A stretch of 64,000 nt of DNA from Caulobacter sp. (GCA_017745235.1 JAGHZU010000003.1:190465-254464); one strand, 5' to 3'; counted from the first letter of the stretch, positions 17,829-42,813 are shown. The notes: generated by a model from the sequence alone, not told the origin. Numbers and translations are program-made.

Positions 17829-18155
17829 TCAGGCGTGACGACGGGTCAGCGCATACGTCGTCAAGCTCGCCACCGCCGCTGTGAGCAGCGCCGCCGCGGC
17901 TGTCAGGGCCGCGGCTTCTCCCGGATGACGATGAACCTGACGGCTGACGTCTTTGGAAAGCTCATCGATTTTTTTCTGGACGTCGGCCACGAGCTCCGCC
18001 GTCGCATGGCCGAGCGCGACCGCATTGGCCGAAACCGCGTCGCCGGCCTCGCCCCGAAACTGTTCGACCATGATCTTCAGGTGTTCAGCCACCTTGGTCA
18101 GCGCGTGGGAAACTTCGTCTCCAACGGGTTTGGCCGGAAGTGGGGTCTTGGACAT
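17829..18155 (-). CDS. Hypothetical tail-anchored protein (ElaB/DUF883-like)
   Basis: Helical N-terminus, VHRHP followed by a hydrophobic C-terminal helix and basic tail TRRHA. Confidence 0.55.
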   Translation of the reverse strand: MSKTPLPAKPVGDEVSHALTKVAEHLKIMVEQFRGEAGDAVSANAVALGHATAELVADVQKKIDELSKDVSRQVHRHPGEAAALTAAAALLTAAVASLTTYALTRRHA

Positions 18156-18211
18156 GAGGACGCTCCAACGGTTAGGTCCAGAACAGCATGCTCTTGTCCT
18201 GGACAGCCGGA

Positions 18212-18225
18212 TTGACCTCGATCAA
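18212..18225. promoter_or_regulatory. FixK/Fnr box TTGAC-CTCG-ATCAA between divergent genes
   Basis: Near-perfect consensus; spacing fits both 18155(-) and 18335(+). Confidence 0.8.
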
Positions 18226-18334
18226 CGGACTACCCTCTTTCAGGATTGGTCGGTTCGCCCGCGTCGAAATTGCGCTGGCTCAAAGGGTCAGCGACGCAAG
18301 GGTTCATCCTGTCCCAGCATCATGGTAGGCTGCG

Positions 18335-18808
18335 ATGGACCAAGCGCTTCGACACGAAATCCTGACGATCCTGGAAGCGGGCCGAGACTTGACCCTGGCC
18401 ACGGTGCGAGACGATGGCGGCCCCCAGGCAACGACCGTTTCCTATGTGAGCGATGGCCTGTCGATTTACTTCGGCTGTTCGGCAAACTCTCAAAAGGCCC
18501 ACAACCTGGCCCGCGATCCTCGCGTGGCCTTGACGGTCGATTTGCCCTATGCGGACTGGAACGAGATCAGGGGGCTGGCGATCAGCGGCGAGGCCATACG
18601 CCTGATCGATCCCGATCAAGTCTCGGAAGTGGAAAATCTTTTCGTGACCAAGTTCCCCCAACTGCGCGAAGCCTTCGCGCTCGGCGGCGCGGAGATCGCG
18701 CTCTTCTGCATCACGCCGCTGGTGGTCTCGGTGCTCGACTATCGCAGGGGCTTCGGGCACGTCGACTATGTGGAGGCCGCAGAGCTCGAACTCGTCGCCG
18801 TGGTCTGA
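18335..18808 (+). CDS. Pyridoxamine 5'-phosphate oxidase-like protein
   Basis: LTLATVRDDGGPQATTVSY and SQKAHNLARDPRV. Confidence 0.88.
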   Translation: MDQALRHEILTILEAGRDLTLATVRDDGGPQATTVSYVSDGLSIYFGCSANSQKAHNLARDPRVALTVDLPYADWNEIRGLAISGEAIRLIDPDQVSEVENLFVTKFPQLREAFALGGAEIALFCITPLVVSVLDYRRGFGHVDYVEAAELELVAVV

Positions 18809-18899
18809 ACGGTCATAGTGATGATCGCGAACCAGCATCCGGCTTGGGCGCGTTGTTCGGCGTCTGGACGGCGCAGCAAGACCTTCATGAGCCCCGCTT

Positions 18900-19680
18900 C
18901 GTGACCAACTCGGTGCTGCTGGGTGGGATCGTCTTCTGTGGCCTCTGCGGCGGAGCGATGACGCTGCGCTCGGGCAAGGGCGGCGCCTAACGCTACTACA
19001 CCTGCTCGAACCGGGCCCGTTGCGGGCCGTCGGCCTGCGACGGCCTGACTGCCCCCATGGAAAAGCTAGACTAAGCCGTCGTCCAGCATATCGAGAACCG
19101 CCTGCACGACCCTGATCGCCTGGCGTCTCTGATGGAGAACGTCATCGACCGCCGGCAGGAATGGGTCGATCGACGCCGCGCACATATCGCCGAATTGCGT
19201 CGACGCGTGACAGACACCGACGCCAAGCTCACTCGGCTCTACGCGGTTGAGGAAGGCGTCGCCGACGTGGCCGATCTGGCCCTGAAGGCGCGGATCGCCG
19301 AACTGACCCGCATCCGCAATGACGCCGGCGTCGAAGTCGAACGCGCCGTCGCGGCGATGGAAAAGCTGGGCCCGACCATCACGCCCGAACTCCCGGAACG
19401 CTTCGCCGCGGCGACCCGCGAAAGCTCTACGACAAAGCGACGGAACGTACTCGCGCGACCTATTCCGGGCGGTCGCCCAGCGCGTCGAGGTCCCCTCGCC
19501 CAACAGCTTGAACATATTCGGCTCGAGAATCGAGCTGCTGAAGACACTGGCGTCGCGCGGTGGCGTGGAATCGGCGCGATCGACGTTCGTGGGTTCTGTA
19601 CCGGCTTGGCGCGCCCTGTTGGACACCCAAGAGAACTACGCGTTCACAATTCAAATCGAACCACATTATCGGGCCGACAA
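18900..19680 (+). pseudogene. Large serine recombinase remnant (Zn-ribbon and coiled coil; catalytic domain absent)
   Basis: LLGGIVFCGLCGGAMTLRSGKGGA*RYYTCS...C...MEKLD*AVV; stops at 18988 and 19072, then a frameshift into DGTYSRDLFRAVAQRVEV...WRA. Confidence 0.85.
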
Positions 19681-20693: not shown

Positions 20694-22082
20694 TTGGCCG
20701 AACAGCGTTCGCAAATCCACCCTCCCGCTGTTGTCGGTCACGGACGCTCCGCCCTCCCCGACAACGCCAGGACCGCAATCAGGAGCAAGAGCTTGGCCGA
20801 GGCGATGTTCAGCGAAATCTACGCCAACACTCCCGAGACCGACTACACGCTCAGCTTTTTCATGAAAGCGGCCCACGGCGCTGAGACCGCGACCCTGGCC
20901 TGCCCCTTCTTCACCAACTACCCGGCGGTGAAGCTGCTGACGGAGCAGGGCTGTGAGGTCAAACTGTTGGTGCGCCTGTGTCACGCCACGACGCCGGACG
21001 CCCTGCGCCAGGCGCTGGCTGATCCGCTCGTCAGCGTGAAGTTTTTCACGGGCCGGCGGTTTCACGCCAAGTTCTACATCGTCGACGATCGTGCGCTGGT
21101 CGGCTCGGCCAACCTGACGGGCGCGGGGCTGGGCGACAATCGGGAGCTGTCGATCCTGTTGACGCGGCAGGCCGACGAGGCGTTTGCCGAGCTTCCTGGT
21201 CTGTTCGATGAGCTCTACGACAGTGCCGATCAGCTCGACATGGTCGCCCTCACGGCGTTCGAGCAAGCGCTGCGCCGCCAGCCGCCGTCCTTCGCGGACG
21301 AAGACTTCGAGAAGACGCTGACCAGCCTTATCCCCGCCGCCGAACCGCGTAGCACGATCGTCGGCAGTGGCCGAAAGTCTAAGGTCCGCGCGTTCCTTCA
21401 GCGCTTCAAGACGCGCTACGACAAGCTTGGCCGCGCGCTGGGGGAGATCGAGGAGCGGTTTCGCGCCGACCAACGCCGCCGGCCCGAGTTCGACGGCGGG
21501 GAACTGGATATCGAGATCAGTCGATTCCTGGGCTGGGTGCGGGTCGCGCATGCGCCCGGCGACACCTGGTCGACCCAACCCCTATTAGAGCGCGGTGGAC
21601 GGCGCGCGCGCATTGAAGAGCTGATGGACCTATGGTTCGCCACCGACGACATCACCCGGGGCGACATGATCTATGCCGAGCGTGAACTGAGCAACATCGA
21701 GCGGATCCGGACGAATTTCGCCACGCCCCAGGCGATCGAGGCCCTCAGCTATGACGAGGTCTTCGACACGCTCAGCGGCTGCCATGCGTTCTATGAGCTG
21801 CTGCGGTTCACCAAAGGAAGCATTGAGGGCTTGCGAGCCCAGTTTTCCCAACTCAACGCCCTGCCCAAGATCCAACGCAGCCTCATCTACCTGCTGCACG
21901 GGCGCGACCCCATCGATCCCCTCGCCCGAGCCTATGACTGCCTCAACGATAAGACCTATCGGCTTCGGCGGTTTGGAGAGTCATGCACAATGGAGCTGTT
22001 GGGCTGGATGGAGCGTGACCGTCACCCGATCAATGGCCGGACGATCCGAGCGCTGCGCTACCTTGGCTTTGACGTTTCCTAG
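20694..22082 (+). CDS. Phospholipase D-family (HKD) nuclease, restriction-enzyme-like (start may be ATG 20805)
   Basis: Single RFHAKFYIVDDRALVGSANLT...NRE motif, as in BfiI/NgoFVII/DrmC-type PLD nucleases; long unknown C-domain. Confidence 0.85.
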   Translation: MAEQRSQIHPPAVVGHGRSALPDNARTAIRSKSLAEAMFSEIYANTPETDYTLSFFMKAAHGAETATLACPFFTNYPAVKLLTEQGCEVKLLVRLCHATTPDALRQALADPLVSVKFFTGRRFHAKFYIVDDRALVGSANLTGAGLGDNRELSILLTRQADEAFAELPGLFDELYDSADQLDMVALTAFEQALRRQPPSFADEDFEKTLTSLIPAAEPRSTIVGSGRKSKVRAFLQRFKTRYDKLGRALGEIEERFRADQRRRPEFDGGELDIEISRFLGWVRVAHAPGDTWSTQPLLERGGRRARIEELMDLWFATDDITRGDMIYAERELSNIERIRTNFATPQAIEALSYDEVFDTLSGCHAFYELLRFTKGSIEGLRAQFSQLNALPKIQRSLIYLLHGRDPIDPLARAYDCLNDKTYRLRRFGESCTMELLGWMERDRHPINGRTIRALRYLGFDVS

Positions 22083-22125: not shown

Positions 22126-23493
22126 TCAGCCAGCCAATTGTGAGGGGCTCGACGGCGTCAGCCCGTTTACTGCCGGGAACACCCGGTTTGTTCGCCCCAG
22201 GGCGGCCATCAACGTCAGGTGAGCCCGCCAGCCGCGATACTCGGCGTCGTCATCGATCCCCAACGCGCGATCTCCAGCCGGCGTAAAGCGCATCAGTTGC
22301 TCGCTGATGCCTTGCCGGCCGAAGATCCAGCAGCCGATCCGATGCCGCGAGAGCATGACGCACAGACGGCCGGCGTCGAGATGAAACGCCGTTGCGTCGG
22401 CGCGGCCTGACAGCGGATGATGCACGAACATAAAGGGCCGCTCGATGCCCTGGAAGCGGTTGGCGGTCTCCACAAAAACCCCGCCCAGATGCGCGCCAAG
22501 TCGCTCGCGCACCGCGTTAACCTGACTCACGTGCGCGCAGACCACGCCGATCTTGTCGGGTGTGACTTCCGACACCTGACCATCGTCGCTCATCCAGGCG
22601 CGACGACGCAGCAGGCGCTCGATCGAGGCGACAAGCTCTTGTGCAAGCTCGCCGTCAGCTTCGCCCGTAGTCTGCGGCGGCAGTTCGACCATCACGATGG
22701 ATGCGCCGGTCGTGACTGCGTCGAGCGCCGCGTCGAACGGCATAATCCCAGCGGCTTCAAATCGGATGGAGCGGTTTCGGCTCATCGCCTGGAACGACAT
22801 GTCGGGATAGAAGGCGGGCTGCACCAAGCTGACAGTGTCTGCGTTAAGCCGGCGGGAAATCGGCAGGTTCAGCTGCAGCACGCTCGGATGACGCCGCACC
22901 AGGGCCGCCGGACAAGACACCTGCGGACCGGAAGGGTCACACCGCCAACGCTCGATCTCGCAGTTCACAAACGGATCGATCTGGCCCGGATCGCCGATCA
23001 AAACGTGCCGCGGCGCAAGGTTCGAGATCAACTGGAACCGGTAGTCGGGTAGCTGGAAAGCTTCATCGACGATCTGGACGTCAAAGCAGGCCTCCGTTGT
23101 CTGAATCCACGACCACTTCGCCGCGTTGCCGATCGTGATCGACGGTTGACGCGGAAGATTGGCGACGTCGTTGACGACGACCAAGTTCGACAGCTGGCGC
23201 ACATCATCCGGGAGATTGAGGTCGCGCTTAGCGAATAGATGGATTGGCATCGAGCGCGCGTTCGCCGCAAGCCGCCGGGTCAAGTCGAAGGCCTGCTCGT
23301 TGGTCTGGGTGACCACCATGCAGCGCTGATCCAGCAACGTCGCGCTCTGCAAAGCCACCCGTTGCGCCACCCCGGTCTTGCCCGCGCCTGGGGGCGACCG
23401 CAAGACAAGCGCCGGTTCCCCCTGCCATTGACTGGCCAGGACCCGCTCAAGCGCGGCATTTGCAACAGCTTCGGGATCAAGAGGCTCATTCAT
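22126..23493 (-). CDS. Superfamily 1B (Dna2/Upf1-like) helicase/ATPase
   Basis: SPPGAGKT Walker A, IVDEAFQ Walker B, LIGDPGQ motif III, ETANRFQG motif V, VMLSRHR motif VI. Confidence 0.88.
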   Translation of the reverse strand: MNEPLDPEAVANAALERVLASQWQGEPALVLRSPPGAGKTGVAQRVALQSATLLDQRCMVVTQTNEQAFDLTRRLAANARSMPIHLFAKRDLNLPDDVRQLSNLVVVNDVANLPRQPSITIGNAAKWSWIQTTEACFDVQIVDEAFQLPDYRFQLISNLAPRHVLIGDPGQIDPFVNCEIERWRCDPSGPQVSCPAALVRRHPSVLQLNLPISRRLNADTVSLVQPAFYPDMSFQAMSRNRSIRFEAAGIMPFDAALDAVTTGASIVMVELPPQTTGEADGELAQELVASIERLLRRRAWMSDDGQVSEVTPDKIGVVCAHVSQVNAVRERLGAHLGGVFVETANRFQGIERPFMFVHHPLSGRADATAFHLDAGRLCVMLSRHRIGCWIFGRQGISEQLMRFTPAGDRALGIDDDAEYRGWRAHLTLMAALGRTNRVFPAVNGLTPSSPSQLAG

Positions 23494-24920
23494 GTGAGAT
23501 CCTCGACGACCGCGAGCAGGTTAGACGGCATCGGCCGACTCAACGGTGTCGGCGCGGGCAACGCACCACTATGGGTCCATGGCGGATTGGCGAGTCGGGC
23601 GCTCATCTGGCCAAGTTCACGGCCCATGCTTTTCCATTTTGGCGCTTCAGGACCAAAATCGAAGCTGTCGTTCCGGGCAATGCGCTTGGCGGCGTTTTTT
23701 CCCTCAAGCACCATACCTGTAATCCAGGTGAAGGGTCCACGGCGTTCGACCTGGTCGATGCGGATCGAGAGCTTAGGATCGTCCAGGGTCCAAAGGACGT
23801 CGCCAATGCGCAGGTGCAGGCTGTCCTGATCGCTGTTGAGAACAAGCTGATACTCGAAGAGCTTCGGCCGGATACGCTCTTCAAAGACGTCGACCACGTG
23901 GACCCGCAGCACGCTGCCGTTCACAACGCCTCGCTCGCGGGCGGCGTGGTCATGACGGAGTTTCCCCGAGTCGACGTTCGAGACCGCCCGCTCGCGGGCG
24001 ACGATCTTCATCACGCCGGCCTTGGGCGAGTCGTGGTAGGGAAGAAAGTGCCCTTCGGCGCGCGCCGCCATGAACCGCTCGAACTCTTGGGCTTCCTGTT
24101 CGGCAAATTCGTCTAGCGCCCGGTTCGCCGTCCAGCGCGGAGCCATCAGCAACGCCATAGCCCGCTGGGTCGCCGTGTAGATCGGGCGAATGACCCCTTC
24201 CAGCATTTGCTGGATGCGGCTCTGGTGAAAAGCGATCTCACTAGCAGAGCTCGCTTTATGAAAACCCTCGATGGCCGGCTGGAGGTAGTTTCGGTCGAAC
24301 TGAGGGTCGGTCTTCGCCCCCATGGGCTGGGCTTCGGCGGCCGCGACCGCTGCGAAAATGTCGCGCCCCGGCGGTGGCTCGATCCAGGTCAGAAGCGAGC
24401 CCAGATGCTCGTCCTCTGACTCTTGTTGGCCTGTCGCGTAATGCAGACGCAGCGCCCCACTGGCGCTGATCAGGGCCTGTTGGCCCGCAACGGGCGAGCG
24501 CTCACCGGCATAGGTCCAAAGAGTGCCTAGACGTTGGATATCGGGCTCGTCGGTGAAGCGGAGGCGGTCGGCCAGGGTGTCGAGATGGCCGAGCGCCCCG
24601 GTGGAGGAGACCCAGATCTGCGGGAAGGTCCCGTTGGCGCGACACTCGGCGTAGTATGTTTCGAAGTGCGGAAGCAGCCAGCGCAGCAAAGCGTACTGAT
24701 CATCGCGGCGGCGGGGATCGGCCACGACCTGAATCTGCGCGGGCTCGCCAAACCGTCCCAGGGCGGCGGCATGGACGGAGGTATCCTCCCCTGCCATAGA
24801 CAGCAGTGTGAGAATTCGCGCATGCGGCTGAATGACGACCTGGCGCTGCAAAACGACCGGCACGGCCTGACCGCGTTGCAAGGCGCGCAAGCGCGCGGCT
24901 ACTTGAATGAGGTCAGCCAT
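23490..24920 (-). CDS. Conserved hypothetical protein coupled to the helicase
   Basis: ATG 24920 overlaps the upstream stop (ATGGCTGA); its stop overlaps the helicase ATG (ATGA). Confidence 0.75.
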   Translation of the reverse strand: MADLIQVAARLRALQRGQAVPVVLQRQVVIQPHARILTLLSMAGEDTSVHAAALGRFGEPAQIQVVADPRRRDDQYALLRWLLPHFETYYAECRANGTFPQIWVSSTGALGHLDTLADRLRFTDEPDIQRLGTLWTYAGERSPVAGQQALISASGALRLHYATGQQESEDEHLGSLLTWIEPPPGRDIFAAVAAAEAQPMGAKTDPQFDRNYLQPAIEGFHKASSASEIAFHQSRIQQMLEGVIRPIYTATQRAMALLMAPRWTANRALDEFAEQEAQEFERFMAARAEGHFLPYHDSPKAGVMKIVARERAVSNVDSGKLRHDHAARERGVVNGSVLRVHVVDVFEERIRPKLFEYQLVLNSDQDSLHLRIGDVLWTLDDPKLSIRIDQVERRGPFTWITGMVLEGKNAAKRIARNDSFDFGPEAPKWKSMGRELGQMSARLANPPWTHSGALPAPTPLSRPMPSNLLAVVEDLT

Positions 24921-26019
24921 TGGCGATCCGATCAAGCACCAGGGAGGCGGCCCGAAGTTCCGCTGACAGGGCTTCTTCGGCTCTGTTGGCCGGGGGGCGA
25001 CCACGCCCATCGAGGAGGTCAAATGCGCGGGCGATGGACCCAGCGGCGGCCAACTGTTCGGCTGCTAGATCGCCAAGAATGATGGGTTGGCCCGCCGCGA
25101 GCGCTTGGCCGCGGCAGCGCTCCCATAGCGCACAGTGTTCCTTGCAGTTCGAACGATAGTTGTTGGGTAACTGCTCGATCACATTGGGGTCGGCGAAGGT
25201 CGCGCCCGCAGGGACAAGCTGTTCCACCTCGTCCAGGTCGGCGGGGGCCGTCGACAGGGCTCGCACCAGCGAGGCCAGCTCAGCCTCGGCGCGCATCGAT
25301 GCGAAGAGACGTGGATTGAAGGATCCAGGGGCGCGAAGCACCATGTCCACCCGATCGCCCGCGAGATCGGCGTCACCGCCCCGCCTTGCAATATGCTGGC
25401 GAAGCGCCAGCGTGCCGACAGCGGCCTCACGGCACGCGGCACGAATATCCGACCGATCGGTCTTGCCGCCCCGGTCGGCGAACGACTTGATCACGCCGAC
25501 TTGGTAGAAGCGCGCGTCGTCGCTGGCCACGAGGTAGTCGAGTTCGATGGCGTGAGTGACGCCAACGAGCTCTAGCGTTAATCGCGGATTCAAGATCAGA
25601 TTGGGCGCGAGCGGGTTACCATCCAGCTTGAGGTCGATCAGGCGCCGCGTTTCAAGTTCGCGCCGGTTACGGGCTACGACGTCATCAACCGAAGTGATAT
25701 CGGCGACTGACGAGATTTTCACTTCATGCTGAGCCAGAAGGCCCTTTTCGCGATAGGCGGTCAGCAGCGAAGAGCCGCCATTGCCCAGCAGGCGGCGTTC
25801 GAAGGCCTGGGTCAGTGTCATCGCGAACGGCGACATATTGTCGGGATCGCCGTGAAAGATGAGCTTGATGACCGCGGTTGGGGTCAGGCCAGCAATCACG
25901 ATCGCCCGAAGGCGGGTGCAGCCCGCGTTGCGCGCCACGCTCTCAATGCCGCGGGCTCCGACCTCAACGGCCGGAATGCCACCACGCAGCCGAGCGAGAC
26001 GTGCATTTTCTGGGGTCAC
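24913..26019 (-). CDS. Hypothetical protein, candidate Fe-S-staple PD-(D/E)XK (Cas4/AddB-like) nuclease
   Basis: N-terminal Cys (NAGCTR), central ELDYLV...VIKSF, C-terminal CKEHCALWERC; GTGA overlap with upstream gene. Confidence 0.6.
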   Translation of the reverse strand: MTPENARLARLRGGIPAVEVGARGIESVARNAGCTRLRAIVIAGLTPTAVIKLIFHGDPDNMSPFAMTLTQAFERRLLGNGGSSLLTAYREKGLLAQHEVKISSVADITSVDDVVARNRRELETRRLIDLKLDGNPLAPNLILNPRLTLELVGVTHAIELDYLVASDDARFYQVGVIKSFADRGGKTDRSDIRAACREAAVGTLALRQHIARRGGDADLAGDRVDMVLRAPGSFNPRLFASMRAEAELASLVRALSTAPADLDEVEQLVPAGATFADPNVIEQLPNNYRSNCKEHCALWERCRGQALAAGQPIILGDLAAEQLAAAGSIARAFDLLDGRGRPPANRAEEALSAELRAASLVLDRIANG

Positions 26020-26876
26020 CGAACAGCCCTCTCAATCGTGTCGGTGTCCACCAACAGAGGTCTGCCCCACAGCTTCAGATGAGCGCTGCTCGACGAGAGC
26101 TTGGCCGCCGCAGCGCGCCGCTCTTCGAGATCGGGGCCTTCGAGCAAGGCCAGCTCGCCATGGGCCGCGTCGACGGTTCGGCTCGTGTCGATCGCCTGGC
26201 CGGTTTCCATGGCGCCGGGAATCGACCGAGCGAACGGAAAGAGCAACCGCTCGACGCTCTTGGCCTCGGTCGCTCCGGTCTCTCTCAGCCGAGCTAGACG
26301 GCCGGCAAGACTGATCGCGATCCGAAGATTGTCCGTGCGGATGCTGCGAGACCCGATGATGCGACGCTCGACGTCCCAGGAGGAGCTCGTGAGCAGTCTT
26401 GGAATCGCCGTCAGCTGCGCCGCGCTGATCGCTGGCACGACCCAGGCTGGACGCGCCGCCAGATTGCGGCGTGCTGCGTTCTCCTCGTCACGTCTCAGGC
26501 TCGCGAAACGCGACGGCGACGGCCGGTTACCGGTGAGCGCTGCGGTGAGGTCGGCAATCAACGCCGGCGCCGCCGGCACGCCAAGATCGTCCAGCGCATC
26601 TAAGGCCAGCTCGCGAAGCGGCTTGCCTGGGCGTCGCGATCGAGGCGTGGCGATGTCACGCGCCTCAAGCTCACTGAACCTCAAGGCGTCCGAAAGGCGC
26701 TGATATTCCGCGCTCAACTCGGTGATCTTCGCCTGGGCGCGCTCGCGCCCGGCGGAATCGTTCGCCCCCAGGGCCTTCGTCAGGTCAGCATAGGCTTCCT
26801 GCTGGCGCTTGGCGTTGCGCACGAGTTGATCAGCAAGGGAGAGCGGGCGAGACATGTTATTTACATACTCTTCCAC
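26016..26876 (-). CDS. Conserved hypothetical protein (first gene of four-gene cassette)
   Basis: 286 aa; coiled-coil N-terminus and FASLRRDE...RRIIG segment. Confidence 0.75.
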   Translation of the reverse strand: MEEYVNNMSRPLSLADQLVRNAKRQQEAYADLTKALGANDSAGRERAQAKITELSAEYQRLSDALRFSELEARDIATPRSRRPGKPLRELALDALDDLGVPAAPALIADLTAALTGNRPSPSRFASLRRDEENAARRNLAARPAWVVPAISAAQLTAIPRLLTSSSWDVERRIIGSRSIRTDNLRIAISLAGRLARLRETGATEAKSVERLLFPFARSIPGAMETGQAIDTSRTVDAAHGELALLEGPDLEERRAAAAKLSSSSAHLKLWGRPLLVDTDTIERAVR

Positions 26877-26966
26877 GCTCTTCCATGCAATACCATGCCT
26901 GAAGACATTGGACGTGCGGACGCCAAGCGGCCCCCCCCACGCTCGACTGCCGCAGAAGCGACCTGA

Positions 26967-28316
26967 CTATTTAATGAAGCAAAGCACCGACTCGGTGGCG
27001 CCGGTCGGGCGCACATAAGTGCGACGCCCGGGATTGATGTCCGACATCGAATGCAGGTGGAAGTCTTCGCGTTGACTCAAGCGTAGACCGTGCTGGACGC
27101 CCATCTCACAGATAATTTTGGGCAAGTCGTTGTGCAGGTCCTTGTAGTAGGAATCTTGGACTACAAGCACCGCCCGCCCACCAGCCTTCAACCCAGTCGA
27201 CATCCGCTCCATTGAGCGTGACATTTTATCAAAATAGTCGAGATGAGTACGGTAGTAATAACCGGCTGACGCCTTCGACGGATGCGCCCTCAAGGCTTTG
27301 AGGAAACGCGCGCAAGTCTTTCCCCACTTGTCGCTGACCTCGATAGGCGCGCCTGGCACCTGGGTCGTTCCGATCATCTGCCTACCCAAAGCCCGCGCTT
27401 CGGTCTTCAGAAGCGGCCCGAGGACTGCCAGCTCAATCCGAGTCGCCGCAGTGTAGTCAATTCTCGTGCAGTAAGGCGGGGACGTGAGCACGAAATCGAT
27501 GCTCTCGGCCGCCAACTTCATCGAAACGGTGTCGGACAGATTGATCTTGCACTCGCCAGCCCGAGGCAAGTCTGGAATGAGAAGGTCGGCATCCTGTTTG
27601 GCTGCAAGCGCCGCTGACATCCCGCGAACATTTTCGGCGAAATAGCGAGCGACCGTGATTTGTGGGACCGCGATTTTCGTTTCGGTCGACTTAGGTACTC
27701 GCAGCCATGTGGGATTAGAAGATTTGAACGGCGCGACCAGCCTGCGGCAGGCGGCGAACAGCGCGACATAGAGCGTGGCTGCCGTGCCCGAGATCTTGTC
27801 CAGGTGAACGCCGTCGGGCGACTTGGTCATGCTCCCGACGAGGCTGCGACGGATATTTTGCTCGATGCCACGGATAAACGCAGCGACGCCAGGCTCAAAC
27901 CAGCCCAGTAACGGGTCGTCCTCCGCCAGCGTCGGCGGCGTAGCCCGGGAATGAAGTAGTATCGTCGCCGCGAGGGGGCGTAAGTGATCTGCTTCGCTCG
28001 ACGGCAGCAGCCGCGCGCGCGCGACGATGATCATAACTGGGTTAAGGTCGATACCCATCGAGCTGAAACCCAGCGTGCTGGCGGCATAGGTCGTCGTGCC
28101 GCTGCCATTCCAGGGGTCCAGGACGACCGCCCCGTGCGGCAGCTTTGCGCTTTGCAAAAGTTCCCGCGCGAAAAGTTCCGGATACCCTGCATAATATGGG
28201 AAAAAGCCCTCCCACCCCGTCTGAAGGCGCTTATTGCGCTTTGGCGAAAGGATGTTGAGTTTCGCCGCTCGCGGTGATGGCGCCCTGCCCGCCTTTTTGA
28301 TCAGCCCCGCCGTCAT
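26967..28316 (-). CDS. Site-specific amino-DNA methyltransferase (probably N4-cytosine, alpha order)
   Basis: Motif I VLDPWNGSGTT near the N-terminus; motif IV LTSPPY in the C-terminal half. Confidence 0.88.
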   Translation of the reverse strand: MTAGLIKKAGRAPSPRAAKLNILSPKRNKRLQTGWEGFFPYYAGYPELFARELLQSAKLPHGAVVLDPWNGSGTTTYAASTLGFSSMGIDLNPVMIIVARARLLPSSEADHLRPLAATILLHSRATPPTLAEDDPLLGWFEPGVAAFIRGIEQNIRRSLVGSMTKSPDGVHLDKISGTAATLYVALFAACRRLVAPFKSSNPTWLRVPKSTETKIAVPQITVARYFAENVRGMSAALAAKQDADLLIPDLPRAGECKINLSDTVSMKLAAESIDFVLTSPPYCTRIDYTAATRIELAVLGPLLKTEARALGRQMIGTTQVPGAPIEVSDKWGKTCARFLKALRAHPSKASAGYYYRTHLDYFDKMSRSMERMSTGLKAGGRAVLVVQDSYYKDLHNDLPKIICEMGVQHGLRLSQREDFHLHSMSDINPGRRTYVRPTGATESVLCFIK

Positions 28317-28912
28317 GCGACTGCAAACCCGCGCTGGCGTCGCACCGTGATTTCTAGACGGATCAACTCTGCCGGCAGCACGGCGGACTGAAGCACCCCG
28401 ATCGGCAGCGTGCCCGATAGCGCCGAGAAGGCCCGATCATAGACGACGACGCAGCTACCCGTCGTCAGACGCGAATTGAACAAGATGCCATCGACATCTG
28501 GCATTTCGGCATGGACAGCCTCAGATAACATTTGCCCTGAAAGGTGATCACGGGCTCGGCTCGTGTCCGTATCGATGCCCAGCTCGTATGGCGCTGCGCC
28601 TGATAGATCGAGCAACGCGAGCTCACGGTCCGAGCTGATGGCGGTTACGCACAGTTGCTCAAGGTGAGGTCTGTATAGGAACCGCCTCATCCTGCCCTCG
28701 AACCGGTCGCGCACGACGGCTTCGGCGAACGCTGTGGAGAAATTGTCAGCCGCATACAGGACGCGAAAGGCGTTTGAAGGACTCGAGAACCGGCTCGATC
28801 CGAACCCCGCATCAGCCGGTGTCGCACGATGCCGAGTCGGCAAGATACGCGGCCAGTCTGCGATGCGGGCGTGGATGATCCGGTCACGGAGCTTGGAGGT
28901 GACAATTCTCAC
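28313..28912 (-). CDS. RES-domain toxin (NAD+ phosphorylase/ADP-ribosyltransferase family)
   Basis: SRFS, VLYAA...AFAEA and DGILFNSR (R-E-S residues); 4-bp overlap with the antitoxin. Confidence 0.85.
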   Translation of the reverse strand: MRIVTSKLRDRIIHARIADWPRILPTRHRATPADAGFGSSRFSSPSNAFRVLYAADNFSTAFAEAVVRDRFEGRMRRFLYRPHLEQLCVTAISSDRELALLDLSGAAPYELGIDTDTSRARDHLSGQMLSEAVHAEMPDVDGILFNSRLTTGSCVVVYDRAFSALSGTLPIGVLQSAVLPAELIRLEITVRRQRGFAVA

Positions 28913-29529
28913 GCGTAGTCGAACGCGCTCGCCGCCGCGCTAGTCACTGCGGGAACATCGCCATCACGAAGCGCTTCAACGGGTGGCTTTCCGCCGGTCA
29001 TACGATTGGGAGCGACCAACCACTCCCAGGCCTCTTCATCCGATGTGAAAAAGGCGGCGACAACATCGAGCCCGTCAACTGGCCTGCGTCGCTCGAACTG
29101 CCGCAGTGGATAGACAAAATTTCGAAGGCCTTTGCGGAGAGCGATGATCTTTTTCGCCTTGCGCCAATTATCAAGCGTGCCGCGCGAAATGCTCAGCTGT
29201 TCCACCAGTTCGCCCGCTCCAACGAGTTCGCTCTCGATCCAATCGGCCGATTCATCATCAACCGTGATCGCATCCAGCAACCTTCCTCCCTCGGCCGCCG
29301 AGACGACGGGCCCAACGCCGCTGCCCTGGAGAATTTTGCTCTCGCGCGCCGGAGTCCGGACGAACGGCTTTCGCTCGCGCCCGCTAAGCGCCTTGGCTGC
29401 TGCGGGCACAGGCACTTTTAAGGTGCTGGCAAGTTCGATCAAGCCGGCCATATCCATGCGCTCGACCTTGCTTTCAATCGCCCTCGTCAATGCGACGCGA
29501 CCAGGGTGGGCCTGCTTTGCGGTGCTCAT
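28909..29529 (-). CDS. Xre/MbcA/ParS-like antitoxin
   Basis: HTH (ISRGTLDNWRK) plus C-terminal AWEWLVAPNRMTGGKPPVEAL motif. Confidence 0.85.
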   Translation of the reverse strand: MSTAKQAHPGRVALTRAIESKVERMDMAGLIELASTLKVPVPAAAKALSGRERKPFVRTPARESKILQGSGVGPVVSAAEGGRLLDAITVDDESADWIESELVGAGELVEQLSISRGTLDNWRKAKKIIALRKGLRNFVYPLRQFERRRPVDGLDVVAAFFTSDEEAWEWLVAPNRMTGGKPPVEALRDGDVPAVTSAAASAFDYA

Positions 29530-29677: not shown

Positions 29678-31408
29678 CTATATGCCGTCGAGGTCCAGTT
29701 GCGTCAGCCGATCATAACCAGACCATTCGCCGTGCTCGAAAGATGGCGAGCCTATCGGCCAGCCCGCGGTCTGCCATAGACGATCAAAGCCGTCCTGGAG
29801 CGGTCCGGCGAGCTTGTCGCGTAAGTTTGGGATCTGGATTGTCGGCAAGCCTAGATCCGGCAAAAGCATCCTTCGCGGGGCGGCCAGATCACCTTGCCGC
29901 AGCGCCACCTCATGCATGCCATTGAACGACACCTGGACCAAGGCTGGGCCATCGAAGCCAAGATCCAAGGCGATGGCGGCCATCCGCTCGAGGTTCGTGA
30001 CCGCAAGCTGCTCGAGGGCGAGCCCGTCGATGTCTATTGCGGCGTCGGCCTGTGTTTGTCGGCCAATCCGCGCTTGAAACTCCAGGTCGCCAGGCCGAAC
30101 GAGCCGCATACGCCATGGCGTCTCGGGGCTGTGCAAGGGTTGAGGGCGAACCCTCGGCCCACAACTCCACCACTGGCGGCCGTCGACACCCGTCTCGACC
30201 GCCTGGGTCGTCGGCGGCGCAAACTTAGCCTGGACCTTGACGATCCGTTTGGGATCGAGACGGGTGTGATCTCGGGCCGCCAGGGGCGCCAACCGGACGG
30301 TCAGGCGCGGCGTCTGAACGATTTCAGGCAGCGCGCCACGGTGAGGATCCGCCGCCATCTCATAGAGAGCGTTGGCCGCTTCCTGTACCCGAGGATCTGG
30401 CTCGACCTCCTTGAGCGCGTCGTCGAGGGCAACCCGAAGTCTGGCTGAGGCCAGGCGTTCAAAGGCGTCCAAGGCGTCGGCAAGTTCCGTCGAACGCAGA
30501 TTGAGCCGTTTGATCGCATCAAGGGTGGAACGTTGCAGCCCCAGCTGAACATCTTGGTCCGTCCTTGGCCAGGCCATCTCGGTGTTGCGATCCATCGCGT
30601 GGGTTCGTTCTAGCAGCAGCTCTTCGAAGGCACCTGCCTTCGCGCGCATGGCGCTGAATGCGGCTTGCACTTCAGGATCATGAAACTCGTACCTCGCTCC
30701 CGACCAGGTCGCCGTCATTTCGAACAGCGGCTCCACCGTTGCGCGCCGATAGGGCTCTCCGAAATTGTGTGTGCGCAGAAGGTCCCGAAGACCGTCCGGG
30801 AACTGGCGATGCGCGCGTCCCAGTAGACCGACGTCGTGCGGATGGGGTTCTACAGGCGCCGCCGGCTTCAGCTGCGCGTGAACCTCGGGATCGTCCAGGA
30901 CTAGCCGGATCGCCTTGGCCAAATCTCGAGTGAGCCCGTCTTTTGCCGTCCGGCGCTGTTCCGCGGTGGCGTCGTGTGGGCAATCAAAGAAGATCGGCCC
31001 CTTGGCATGGCGAAGATCGAACGGCAGCTCGTGCGTTTTTGGATGCCCCATGGCTGTGTTCATCACCGAGATCACGCGACGCCAGGTTAGGGATTTGAGC
31101 GCCCAACCGTGCTCAATGCTGACATTGGGGTTGGGGGTGCCGCCGCCACCCGGCCGAAAGCCGACATAGGTCATGTCCGAAACGAACAGAAGCGCACCGT
31201 CGATCTTACGAAAGATCGTCTCGACGATAGGCGGCGACCCGCCAATGCCTTGGGTATCGCTGTCGACGGCGATTTCCCGATGAGCCGCATCGATCGCTGC
31301 ATCGGCCTTGAGTTTCGCGATCGCGTCCCCCAGCGCCTGGTGGATCAAGAACCGACCAATGGCTCCTCGTGTGTCGCTCTGCCACGAAAAGAAGATCTGG
31401 TGGGGCAT
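29678..31408 (-). CDS. TIR-like/nucleoside-deoxyribosyltransferase-fold domain protein with long unknown C-terminus
   Basis: IFFSWQSD...GSPPIVETIFRKID...FVSDMT...NPNVSIEHGWA...LPFDLRH; start placed at ATG 31408. Confidence 0.72.
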   Translation of the reverse strand: MPHQIFFSWQSDTRGAIGRFLIHQALGDAIAKLKADAAIDAAHREIAVDSDTQGIGGSPPIVETIFRKIDGALLFVSDMTYVGFRPGGGGTPNPNVSIEHGWALKSLTWRRVISVMNTAMGHPKTHELPFDLRHAKGPIFFDCPHDATAEQRRTAKDGLTRDLAKAIRLVLDDPEVHAQLKPAAPVEPHPHDVGLLGRAHRQFPDGLRDLLRTHNFGEPYRRATVEPLFEMTATWSGARYEFHDPEVQAAFSAMRAKAGAFEELLLERTHAMDRNTEMAWPRTDQDVQLGLQRSTLDAIKRLNLRSTELADALDAFERLASARLRVALDDALKEVEPDPRVQEAANALYEMAADPHRGALPEIVQTPRLTVRLAPLAARDHTRLDPKRIVKVQAKFAPPTTQAVETGVDGRQWWSCGPRVRPQPLHSPETPWRMRLVRPGDLEFQARIGRQTQADAAIDIDGLALEQLAVTNLERMAAIALDLGFDGPALVQVSFNGMHEVALRQGDLAAPRRMLLPDLGLPTIQIPNLRDKLAGPLQDGFDRLWQTAGWPIGSPSFEHGEWSGYDRLTQLDLDGI

Positions 31409-31492
31409 CGTCGCCTTCGAAACTCGGACCGCCACCGTGCAAACCGCCGCCCACCATTGCAAGTCATGAGCGCCTCGATCAACGCCTTTAGA

Positions 31493-40908: not shown

Positions 40909-42813
40909 TTAGAAGCCGTGATGGCGAGCCAGGTCGTCATTGACGAAGGTGATCTGGGTTCGCTTCCGAACCAAATTGACGAGGCGCGCTTGCGGATCCA
41001 CGAGGTTGGGATCCATCGCCTGTTGCCAGTCGGCGCCGAATATCTGCGCCTTGATATAAAACGGCTTGGCAACGACCACGGCCTTAGCCGCTCGTCGCCG
41101 GGCCTTCAGTTGTGCCAAGGCCAGGGTAACTTGTTCCCGCGCAGGATATATCCGAACGATCCGACGAGGATCATCGCAGTCGCGCGCCGTGTAGTACGGT
41201 TCGGTCAGAAGCCAGTCGCCACGTCGATCGTCGCGCGGGGCAACTTTGGCTAGGGTCTCCCGATGGCGATCGACACCATAACGTGTCACGGCCCGATCGG
41301 CGACGATCGGCGCGCCCTGGTCGAAGCTCACCTCGTACCGCCCATCCGCTTGGCGCTTGATCGTTTCGATCTTTCCCTGGCGGTAAGTCACGCAAGGCAG
41401 GGTGCGCAGCAGCCGCATCGTCCAAACATTGTAGGGCGAGAGCTGGCGCGTGTAGGGCGTCGGCGTCAGGCCATTCAGGATTACCTTTATGCTCTGGCGC
41501 ATATGCGGCCGCAGCATCGCCACCGTGGCCGGCAGCCCATAGGCCATCTTGCCCATAGCCAGGCTGATGCGATCATCGATGAACCTGTCGACTGCGGCGC
41601 GCACCTTCAACTGCGTCGCCAGGGGCAGCGCCAAAACGAAGTCCTCGCGTTCGCTCCAAGTCAGCTTAGTCAATGGTCGATCTGGGAAATGACGCAGAAG
41701 GTATGGCCTCAGGGCCGCGTCGAGCGCCATGAAGATGGGCCGGTCCTTGGCGCCGGCTTGTCGCCACCAAGTCGAACGCCCCAAGGCTTCAAAGTGGGAC
41801 CAGATGTCCAACCACCAGCAGATCTCGGACAGGATCTCGGTTGCGTAGCGCTCGACCTCCTGGCTCCGGACAATATGCTCGAGACGTGCGCCAATCAGGA
41901 GTTGGTCGATAACTAGATCGAGGTCGCGAAACTGCGGCCAGAGCGCTTTTATCTCGTCATGACGAAAATCCTGGACCGCATAATGCAGGGCTTCGACGAC
42001 GCCGCTATCGCCGCAACCCGAGATCACCACAGTCGCATCGTCGGGTAGGTTTTCGTAGAGAAGCCGATGACCTGACTCCCAGTAGCTGTAATCGACCAAG
42101 CCCTCAGGGTTGGTCTCTTCGCCAAAACCGGTGGCGTCGATCACGACGTCTACGACAATGGGATCGGGGCTGCCTCTACTCGGCATATCGATGTGGAGCT
42201 TGTCGCCTTCGCGAACAACGGACTTCGGTGCGATGTCCATTTTCTGGAAGACAAAGATGGGTAGGTCAGCGGCCAGACGGTTGAACTCGCTCTCCCACTG
42301 GCTGGCGACTTCATTGGCCCAATCGGCCGTCCACTCGAAAACCGGAACCTTAGCGTGGGCCGTAGACCAGGCCGGATCAAAGCGGCGGCCCAAGGCGCGG
42401 GAATTGAGGGCGGGCGAGAGATAGCGATGAGCCTTATCGCGAAACCGCGATAGCAATCTGTCGCCCTTTTCGAAGATATAGACGATCGCTTCGCTACTGG
42501 CGGCCAATTCTACCGCCAGGGTCAGGCCGGAAAACGAACCGCCAACGATGGCGACAACGTCGCCGGCCTTGACCTTGCCGGCGTGACCCAGGGCCCAGGC
42601 CAAGTTGGTGCTGCGAATTTGCTGGTGGACGATCGAGATGTTCTCTCGCGCGCCGCCGATGACGGAGTACACCCCGTCGGTATCGGCGCAGGCAGCCTCG
42701 GCTAGGATTTCAGCCGCGTGGCCGTCAAGCACGACGCGCTGAGCGGCATCAGGCTTGGGAATTGATCGTGATTTCCGCCGCATGCAGGCCAACCTACGCA
42801 GGAACTTAAACAA
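40909..42813 (-). CDS. FAD/NAD(P)-binding Rossmann-fold protein of unknown function
   Basis: VAIVGGSFSG...FEK, VIDATGFG and a second VVISGCGDSG motif. Confidence 0.65.
   Translation of the reverse strand: MFKFLRRLACMRRKSRSIPKPDAAQRVVLDGHAAEILAEAACADTDGVYSVIGGARENISIVHQQIRSTNLAWALGHAGKVKAGDVVAIVGGSFSGLTLAVELAASSEAIVYIFEKGDRLLSRFRDKAHRYLSPALNSRALGRRFDPAWSTAHAKVPVFEWTADWANEVASQWESEFNRLAADLPIFVFQKMDIAPKSVVREGDKLHIDMPSRGSPDPIVVDVVIDATGFGEETNPEGLVDYSYWESGHRLLYENLPDDATVVISGCGDSGVVEALHYAVQDFRHDEIKALWPQFRDLDLVIDQLLIGARLEHIVRSQEVERYATEILSEICWWLDIWSHFEALGRSTWWRQAGAKDRPIFMALDAALRPYLLRHFPDRPLTKLTWSEREDFVLALPLATQLKVRAAVDRFIDDRISLAMGKMAYGLPATVAMLRPHMRQSIKVILNGLTPTPYTRQLSPYNVWTMRLLRTLPCVTYRQGKIETIKRQADGRYEVSFDQGAPIVADRAVTRYGVDRHRETLAKVAPRDDRRGDWLLTEPYYTARDCDDPRRIVRIYPAREQVTLALAQLKARRRAAKAVVVAKPFYIKAQIFGADWQQAMDPNLVDPQARLVNLVRKRTQITFVNDDLARHHGF

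Follow-up and report, generated by a model that had tools for sequence, protein, structure and literature searches.

Organization of the locus

We analyzed a 64,000-nucleotide (nt) stretch of Caulobacter sp. DNA, referred to here as the window, whose numbering is used throughout. The subject of this study is a cassette of four co-directional open reading frames (ORFs), g1 to g4, on the minus strand of the window between positions 22126 and 26876. An earlier note on this DNA had described the four genes as overlapping at every junction. Reading all three junctions directly from the sequence bore this out, with GTGA shared by g1 and g2, ATGGCTGA by g2 and g3, and ATGA by g3 and g4 (Table 1). The start of g1 is most likely the ATG at 26855 rather than the GTG at 26876, because the GTG falls within the third repeat of the conserved promoter/repeat element described below. 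For g3, a longer frame with a TTG start, extending up to 25022, also exists but is not needed.

Table 1. Features of the window and their coordinates
Feature	Position	Strand	Comment
g1	26016-26876 from GTG (286 amino acids [aa]); 26016-26855 from ATG (279 aa)	-	Orphan protein
g2	24913-26019	-	368 aa; predicted iron-sulfur PD-(D/E)xK nuclease
g3	23490-24920	-	476 aa from the ATG within ATGGCTGA; orphan protein
g4	22126-23493	-	455 aa; predicted Upf1-like SF1B helicase core
g1/g2 junction	26019-26016	-	GTGA
g2/g3 junction	24920-24913	-	ATGGCTGA
g3/g4 junction	23493-23490	-	ATGA
Predicted promoter/operator element	26862-26898	-	Conserved intergenic block in the spacer between methyltransferase gene and g1
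GCRTGG direct repeats (3), 10-bp phased	26898-26893, 26888-26883, 26878-26873	-	Part of the element
-35-like box, TTGCAT	26890-26885	-	Overlapped by the repeats
-10-like box, TATGTA	26867-26862	-	17-nt spacer from the -35-like box
DNA methyltransferase	26967-28316	-	449 aa; Pfam N6_N4_Mtase, 3e-11
RES toxin	28313-28912	-	Pfam RES, 1e-20
Xre-type antitoxin	28909-29529	-	Pfam Xre-MbcA-ParS_M, 2e-13
PLD-family (HKD) nuclease-like gene	20694-22082	+	Convergent with g4
594-aa gene	29678-31462	-	Upstream of Xre
ORF	17953-18990	+	See Additional observations
634-aa gene	40909-42813	-	Between transfer genes
tRNA-like gene	59230-59322	+	93 nt (ARAGORN)

Conservation and distribution of the cassette

A taxonomic and synteny survey, in which a single genome from each species was scanned for a pattern and individual homologs were looked up, yielded ~40 related loci (numbered with the prefix L) spread over several phyla. 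The order g1-g2-g3-g4 is identical in every intact locus, and the 4-, 8-, and 4-bp overlaps are kept in clades down to 41 to 48% protein identity. All four genes are also co-linear in a metagenomic clade of 25 to 37% identity (phmmer E values of 4e-22, 4e-52, 1e-30, and 5e-79 for g1 to g4) and on two Streptomyces plasmids, L042 and L043 (NZ_CP027023 and NZ_CP108489; hmmsearch E values of 5e-40, 2e-37, 1e-58, and 2e-92). Because the order and overlaps recur down to 41 to 48% identity, and co-linearity extends to the distant clades, the cassette is more than a chance juxtaposition; the four-gene arrangement is real and under selection.

The closest relatives belong to the Alpha- and Betaproteobacteria and the Acidobacteriota, and the full range of the module covers the Alpha-, Beta-, and Gammaproteobacteria, Acidobacteriota, and Actinomycetota. 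The resemblance to actinobacterial clusters suggested in the earlier note was therefore misplaced as to the nearest relatives but has a counterpart in the complete four-gene sets on the Streptomyces plasmids. The g3 family alone comprises at least 719 clusters at 50% identity (exhaustive profile search, E ≤ 1e-3), and a sample of 400 further genomes from the same phylum contained no g3. The cassette of the window lies downstream of the conjugative-element genes TrbI, TrbG, TrbL, and TrbE, and marks of mobility elsewhere include an integrase on an integrative and conjugative element (ICE; L030), a serine recombinase (L040), and carriage on plasmids. No copy was present in the phage records or IMG/VR viral contigs searched. 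The module is thus rare, sporadic, and horizontally mobile. In public sources, every named homolog is called either "hypothetical protein" or "AAA family ATPase."

Some copies have decayed. L023:8301-10005 has lost g1, and its truncated methyltransferase gene leads directly into a g2 that lacks its 5' end; in L028:9508-10812, fragments of g2, g3, and g4 are all that remains. Two further genes are each broken by one in-frame stop codon, namely g1 of Azospirillum endophyticum (L003:8042-8902) and g4 of Mesorhizobium quangtriensis (L017:11437-12798). These stops could reflect pseudogenes, sequencing errors, or recoding events.

Predicted functions of the four proteins

The sole member of the set with family matches is g4. 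In Pfam, it matches AAA_12 at 3.5e-9 (37 bits against a cutoff of 27 bits), as well as AAA_19 (25.7 bits against 25.1), AAA_30, and AAA_11. Its nearest PDB chains by phmmer are Aquarius, ZNFX1, and Sen1; Dna2 was not among the matches to PDB chains at E ≤ 0.01. The helicase motifs I (Walker A, SPPGAGKT, residues 33 to 40), Ia (TNxQA), II (DEAxQ, 143 to 147), III (GDPGQI, 167 to 172), V (RFQGxE, 346 to 351), and VI (SRH, 382 to 384) are all invariant in an alignment of 15 sequences reaching down to 36% identity. The protein begins ~30 residues ahead of Walker A, and there is no stalk or 1B barrel in the same chain. Judged by these features, g4 is predicted to be a complete but bare Upf1-like superfamily 1B (SF1B) helicase core, made up of RecA1 and RecA2 only. 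A more specific identity offered by NCBIfam, "PLuB system helicase-like," was rejected, as the score of 52.6 bits is far under the cutoff of 999 and the name was not found in the literature searched.

For g3, no family match (Pfam, NCBIfam, PADLOC, and PHROGs) and no PDB sequence-profile match was found. Its AlphaFold2 (AF2) model, with a predicted local distance difference test (pLDDT) score of 86.8, shows an N-terminal alpha/beta domain of unassigned fold (residues ~1 to 298) that carries nearly all of the invariant residues. This is followed by long helices (299 to 334), a beta-barrel (338 to 423), and then one more helix. Foldseek matched the model to Sen1 (E values of 2.7e-3 to 4.7e-3), SETX (1.2e-2), and Dna2 (5eaw; 7e-2 over 245 columns), and against viral structures it returned generic barrel matches only. 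We read the C-terminal helices and barrel of the model as a putative stalk and 1B barrel, elements that normally lie within the same chain in Upf1-like helicases. A partnership between g3 and g4 also finds putative Rosetta-stone support in a 909-aa metagenomic protein, P0217, in which a g3 region (33% identity, 1e-26) is followed by a g4 region (36% identity, 1e-75). The possibility that the N-terminal domain of g3 is a degenerate copy of the g2 nuclease was tried and discarded (hhalign probability of 0.4%).

No family or PDB sequence match to g2 was found either, in the same four libraries and a PDB profile search. The window protein gave no Pfam match to Cas_Cas4 (PF01930) or PDDEXK_1 (PF12705) at E ≤ 0.1, and 1 of 19 relatives touches PDDEXK_1, at an E value of 0.71. 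At the level of structure, the AF2 model (pLDDT of 82.8) has as its best Foldseek matches in the PDB MGME1 (7.7e-4), Cas4 SSO0001 (9e-4), and EXO5 (1e-3), with RecE, lambda exonuclease, AddB, AdnAB, and RecB further down; the matches were confined to RecB/Cas4-type PD-(D/E)xK exonucleases. The model points to g2 being a predicted PD-(D/E)xK nuclease of the Cas4/EXO5/MGME1/AddB kind, with core residues H156, E159, D167, and (V/E)176-x-K178. Within 122 homologs, K178 is present in all and D167 in 119. Four cysteines, C34 before the core and C292-x3-C296-x5-C302 after it (a CX3CX5C spacing), are invariant in 121 to 122 of the 122 homologs. In Cas4, AddB, Dna2, and EXO5, the iron-staple cluster has its cysteines placed in this same way, one ahead of the core and three behind, and g2 may likewise hold an iron-sulfur (Fe-S) cluster.

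These assignments agree with what the earlier note had proposed for three of the genes: that gene 2 has cysteine and PD-(D/E)XK-like features, that gene 4 is an SF1B helicase without accessory domains, and that gene 3 may supply such domains, an idea favored by the stalk/barrel matches and the g3-g4 fusion.

In the remaining protein, g1, the N terminus forms a variable coiled coil, and conservation resides in the C-terminal region, with the motifs LRELxLDxLDxLGVP, SRFASLRRDE, PAW, and WGxP. Its alignment (A4) has 41 invariant columns. There was no match in Pfam, PADLOC, NCBIfam, or PHROGs, and a PDB profile search returned coiled-coil noise only. It may be a subunit that regulates or that binds DNA.

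A conserved element upstream of g1

When the spacers between the methyltransferase gene and g1 were aligned, conservation was confined to the last ~45 nt. Here, a single copy of AAGCaTGGtATTGCaTGGAAgAgCgTGGAAg.cTATat stands at a fixed, ungapped distance from the ATG in 29 nonredundant loci, including those with 35 to 48% g1 identity. Column identity reaches 0.81 within the element, against 0.41 immediately upstream and 0.63 in the coding sequence. The consensus is a -35-like TTGCRT, a 17-nt spacer, and a -10-like TATAnn, with an ATG 6 to 7 nt further on (6 nt in the window). In the 4.9-Mb genome, the three-repeat pattern is found a single time even when one mismatch is allowed, and the two-repeat pattern had no further match in any locus. 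At the same position, the Streptomyces loci carry four (C/G)TCTGG(A/T)A repeats.

The element is probably a promoter with an operator for g1 to g4. As the ATG comes only 6 to 7 nt after the -10-like box, a leaderless g1 mRNA, beginning at the ATG at 26855, is predicted. The element is kept in loci that lack both the Xre-RES pair and the methyltransferase described below, so the reader of the repeats is most simply a cassette-encoded protein, and g1 appears to be the best candidate. A simple scan of the region for sigma-70 promoters and terminators was not above shuffled controls; the scan missed the conserved promoter because its -10 rule demands a final T. A conserved leaderless promoter with phased repeats would be a directly testable regulatory circuit.

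Genomic neighborhood

Upstream of the cassette and on the same strand lies an operon of Xre, RES, and DNA methyltransferase (MTase) genes, in which the Xre and RES frames overlap by 4 bp and the RES and MTase frames likewise by 4 bp. In the MTase, VLDPWNGSGTT around residue 65 corresponds to motif I and TSPPY around residue 278 to motif IV. Of 31 informative loci, 26 have an MTase of the same family within 5 kb of the cassette, placed in the same orientation, in divergent orientation (Bradyrhizobium/Mesorhizobium group), or in an altered gene order (L041). Its identity to the MTase of the window rises and falls with g3 identity (r = 0.98; the 25 loci compared are related, hence not independent). 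At L041:3320-6000, on a JGI metagenome contig, the cassette is 57 to 73% identical to that of the window and the adjacent MTase only 30%, and the MTase precedes the Xre-RES pair instead of following it. The MTase seems to have been replaced, and the gene order reshuffled, in an otherwise conserved neighborhood. Two loci without the window-type MTase, L020 and L039, have a complete XhoI restriction-modification pair, and no MTase was found within 5 to 8 kb in L019, L024, L035, or the two Streptomyces loci (L042 and L043). The MTase is thus a lineage-specific partner outside the universal core. The Xre-RES pair accompanies the MTase and cassette, in three arrangements, in all loci at least 57% identical to g3, and it is absent from clades of ~45% identity.

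Known defense genes recur in the vicinity of the cassette. These include AbiEii, GmrSD, HEPN, and Gabija (L029); Gabija and HEPN (L041), with Gabija adjacent to the cassette in L041 as in L029; the XhoI pair already mentioned (L020 and L039), with an SLFN-like helicase in L039; a type III-like restriction-modification system, along with the serine recombinase, in L040; AbiEii (L035); and Wadjet JetABC (L042 and L043). On both Streptomyces plasmids, the JetA (DUF3375), JetB (DUF4194), and JetC cluster comes directly after the four-gene module, and on one of them SbcCD precedes it. The module and Wadjet may form a conserved two-system island on these plasmids.

The earlier note had placed the cassette among a toxin-antitoxin (TA) pair, an MTase, and phospholipase D (PLD) and TIR-like genes on an ICE. 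The Xre-RES pair, MTase, PLD gene, and trb genes are present, whereas the gene dubbed "TIR-like," which encodes the 594-aa protein upstream of Xre, has no Pfam match. The PLD gene was found in none of the related loci and is probably a separate, stand-alone defense or cargo gene; neither it nor the 594-aa gene is part of the module. The N-terminal ~180 residues of the 594-aa protein are 34% identical to L026:13001-13549, directly downstream of g4 in Novosphingobium sp. BW1.

Relationship to known systems

No match to a named system or to a housekeeping repair module, either of which the earlier note had considered, emerged from the profile libraries or the literature. No Pfam, NCBIfam, PADLOC, or PHROGs model covers g1 to g3. 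Against PADLOC-DB v2.0.0 (2023), these three proteins matched zero families at E ≤ 0.1, and g4 gave generic helicase-core matches only. In the literature searched, we found no published name for the module, only analogs.

The closest of these analogs in build are Dna2, of eukaryotes and archaea, and Bad. Given the assignments of g2, g3, and g4, the earlier note was fair in likening the build of the cassette to a Dna2-type nuclease-helicase broken up into parts. The same parts are predicted in the same N-to-C order: a four-cysteine RecB/Cas4-type nuclease, a barrel and stalk, and an SF1B RecA1-RecA2 motor. Bad, a DNA2-like helicase-nuclease from the bacterial genus Geobacillus, is a 5'-3' single-stranded DNA translocase with an Fe-S nuclease (PMC7430649). 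Bad and Dna2 show that such a combination of domains works as a 5'-3' translocating Fe-S nuclease. The differences are nevertheless considerable. Dna2 and Bad are single chains, whereas nuclease, accessory region, and motor are separate genes in ~40 loci, with one g3-g4 fusion and no g2 fusions seen. The module adds the orphan g1 and the large extra N-terminal domain of g3. No homology to Dna2 or Bad was detected at the sequence level (g4 by phmmer, g2 and g3 by profiles), and the fold match of g3 to 5eaw has an E value of 0.07. The cysteine spacing is CX3CX5C, and the setting is mobile and defense linked, as opposed to housekeeping.

AddAB, AdnAB, and RecBCD also combine, over several subunits, an SF1 motor with a PD-(D/E)xK nuclease, which in AddB bears an Fe-S cluster, and the fold of g2 matches AddB, AdnAB, and RecB. 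RecBCD also degrades foreign linear DNA. These are, however, UvrD-like SF1A and RecD-like motors fused to nucleases, near universal, housekeeping, and Chi regulated, whereas the module is rare and mobile, with just one motor, of the Upf1-like type. Cas4-like nucleases have been linked repeatedly and independently to SF1 or SF2 helicases in defense contexts (PMC5704561), and the Cas4 family and solo Cas4-like nucleases share with g2 the four cysteines and, by prediction, the PD-(D/E)xK nuclease fold. The partners described there are UvrD-like or YprA-like, not Upf1-like; the module is without CRISPR, and g2 is without a Cas4 profile match.

Among named antiphage systems, Nhi and Mokosh likewise pair an SF1 or Upf1-like helicase with a nuclease. 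In PADLOC, g4 matches MkoA at 2.6e-7 (profile positions 786 to 1075 of 1112) and MkoC at 7e-5 (645 to 712 of 1136). Nhi, on the other hand, consists of one protein, to which PADLOC matched nothing in the module, and Mokosh needs a PLD nuclease (MkoB, or fused in MkoC) and large N-terminal regions, while the PLD neighbor of the module is not conserved. Neither has a counterpart of g1 to g3. DISARM and type I/III restriction-modification systems share with the window locus the logic of methyltransferase, ATP-dependent translocase, and nuclease. DISARM differs in that there is no DrmA/DrmB (DUF1998) match and no conserved DrmC PLD (PADLOC and Pfam), type I/III systems in that there is no HsdR/HsdS or Res SF2 motor, and classical restriction-modification in that the MTase is not in every locus. 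A DISARM-like reading that enlists the PLD gene was rejected, as that gene occurs in no related locus. Helicase-nuclease defense machines are known, and the module differs from them by three orphan families.

Proposed model and alternative explanations

We favor, with a probability of roughly 55%, the reading that g1 to g4 form an unnamed, self-regulated, split Dna2-like nuclease-helicase defense module, accompanied in this genome by a methyltransferase and an Xre-RES pair. Our analysis establishes the gene anatomy, conservation, fold-level assignments, cis element, and genomic associations described above, whereas complex formation (the earlier note proposed a stoichiometric complex), substrate, polarity, the Fe-S cluster, a role for methylation, the identity of the repressor, and a defense phenotype are inferred, as follows. 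Transcription of the module would start at a promoter of its own and give a leaderless mRNA, with the repeats probably serving as operator. Its products would assemble into a single ATP-driven nuclease-helicase, in which g3, by giving g4 the stalk/barrel and a conserved extra N-terminal domain, would form with it one complete SF1B motor. The Fe-S nuclease of this motor would be g2, and g1 would join as a fourth subunit, repress the promoter that bears the repeats, or do both. The machine may load on foreign DNA at ends, flaps, or single-stranded replication or transfer intermediates, and it would translocate 5' to 3' and degrade that DNA, working in the manner of Dna2 or Bad. In the lineage of the window, methylation probably marks host DNA as self, and the Xre-RES pair may stabilize or back up the locus.

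Several observations weigh against this reading. The Foldseek scores behind the fold assignments are modest (E values of ~1e-3 and template modeling [TM] scores of 0.15 to 0.49), the TM-scores being low because only domains align, and no sequence-profile link ties g2 to Cas4 or PDDEXK_1, or g3 to anything. The g3 barrel also matches the N-terminal barrels of F1-ATPase and HerA by Foldseek, and P0217, the sole fusion seen, could be a frameshift or gene-calling artifact. In g2, the acid of the (D/E)xK motif, at position 176, is valine in 67, glutamate in 49, and threonine in 5 of the 122 homologs, with valine in the clade of the window and glutamate in the distant clades, the most distant included. 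With valine at this position, catalysis would need another acid (E159 or E123), or the enzyme would be impaired or weakened. The CX3CX5C spacing of the cysteines departs from the CX2CX5C of Cas4, AddB, and Dna2. Upf1-like helicases frequently act on RNA. The absence of the MTase from distant clades implies that methylation is not essential to the core mechanism, and the defense-island neighborhood is a correlation only.

One alternative, which we regard as unlikely, is that the cassette serves the mobile element itself in DNA end processing or recombination and repair (ICE or plasmid maintenance, replication, or end resection after excision), with the MTase and TA genes as unrelated cargo. The closest working analogs, namely Dna2, Bad, AddAB, AdnAB, RecBCD, EXO5, and MGME1, are indeed repair or replication enzymes, the module is carried on ICEs and plasmids, and one Streptomyces copy adjoins SbcCD. 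Yet the flanks repeatedly hold defense genes rather than replication or transfer genes, and the position within elements varies. The sporadic occurrence (0 of 400 genomes of the phylum), the decay in some genomes, and a co-diverging, replaceable MTase partner of the kind typical of restriction-like systems also speak against such a role. Less probable still is an RNA-targeting system, in which the Upf1-like motor would have phage or cellular RNA as its substrate, a role suggested for the helicases of Mokosh and CoCoNuT, and g2 would cut RNA or RNA-DNA hybrids. By sequence, g4 is most similar to helicases of RNA or RNA/DNA (Aquarius, ZNFX1, and Sen1), and it also matches C-terminal parts of MkoA and MkoC, but the latter matches are limited to the generic RecA core and come with no conserved PLD partner. 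The fold family of g2 (Cas4, EXO5, MGME1, AddB, and RecE) consists of DNA nucleases, and the linked modification enzyme is a DNA MTase; together these points make RNA targeting very improbable.

A different question, nested within the defense reading, is whether the MTase is obligatory. In a true restriction-modification-like system, g1 to g4 would be the restriction half, sensing unmethylated sites via g1 or the g3 N-terminal domain before it translocates and cuts, and copies without an MTase would use one encoded elsewhere. The presence of a single MTase family at 26 of the 31 loci, irrespective of orientation or gene order, and its correlation with g3 (r = 0.98) are in keeping with this, as are the swap to a 30%-identical MTase in L041, as in specificity exchange, and the XhoI pair in two of the MTase-less loci. 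We still consider it doubtful, as no MTase lies within 5 to 8 kb of the cassette in L019, L024, L035, or either Streptomyces locus, the cassette has its own predicted promoter apart from the MTase operon, no recognizable target-recognition domain was found, and the MTase could be an anti-restriction gene of the ICE. A bolder form of the defense reading is similarly tentative. In it, the cassette would be a four-subunit, Fe-S, split Dna2-like immune system of a new class, with g1 and the g3 N-terminal domain as novel sensors or specificity modules and a phased triple-repeat leaderless promoter that co-evolves with the cassette across phyla, and recruitment of a solitary MTase in some lineages would yield a new restriction-modification type.

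Three of the four proteins are without annotation in Pfam, NCBIfam, PADLOC, and PHROGs, despite the size of the g3 family (at least 719 clusters). If the module is a true defense system, it would enlarge the catalog of such systems by a widespread member. As an "exploded" Dna2 made by nature, it would let nuclease, stalk/barrel, and motor be separately purified, mutated, and recombined, and would help to explain the gating of SF1B motors by accessory domains and the coupling of Fe-S nucleases to these motors. The variable MTase partnership, whether co-diverging, swapped, or replaced by an XhoI pair, may give a view of methylation-independent nucleases turning restriction-modification-like.

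Additional observations

Other features of the window and of the related loci are recorded here for completeness. The defense island of L029 contains a weakly nucleoside deoxyribosyltransferase-like gene. In the window, ARAGORN reports a tRNA-like gene with a four-base anticodon (tcgc), to which it assigned no identity. The 634-aa protein encoded between transfer genes has a weak pyridine-nucleotide-disulfide oxidoreductase match. The ORF at 17953-18990 has a weak recombinase zinc beta-ribbon match at its C-terminal end and may be a recombinase remnant at the element boundary.

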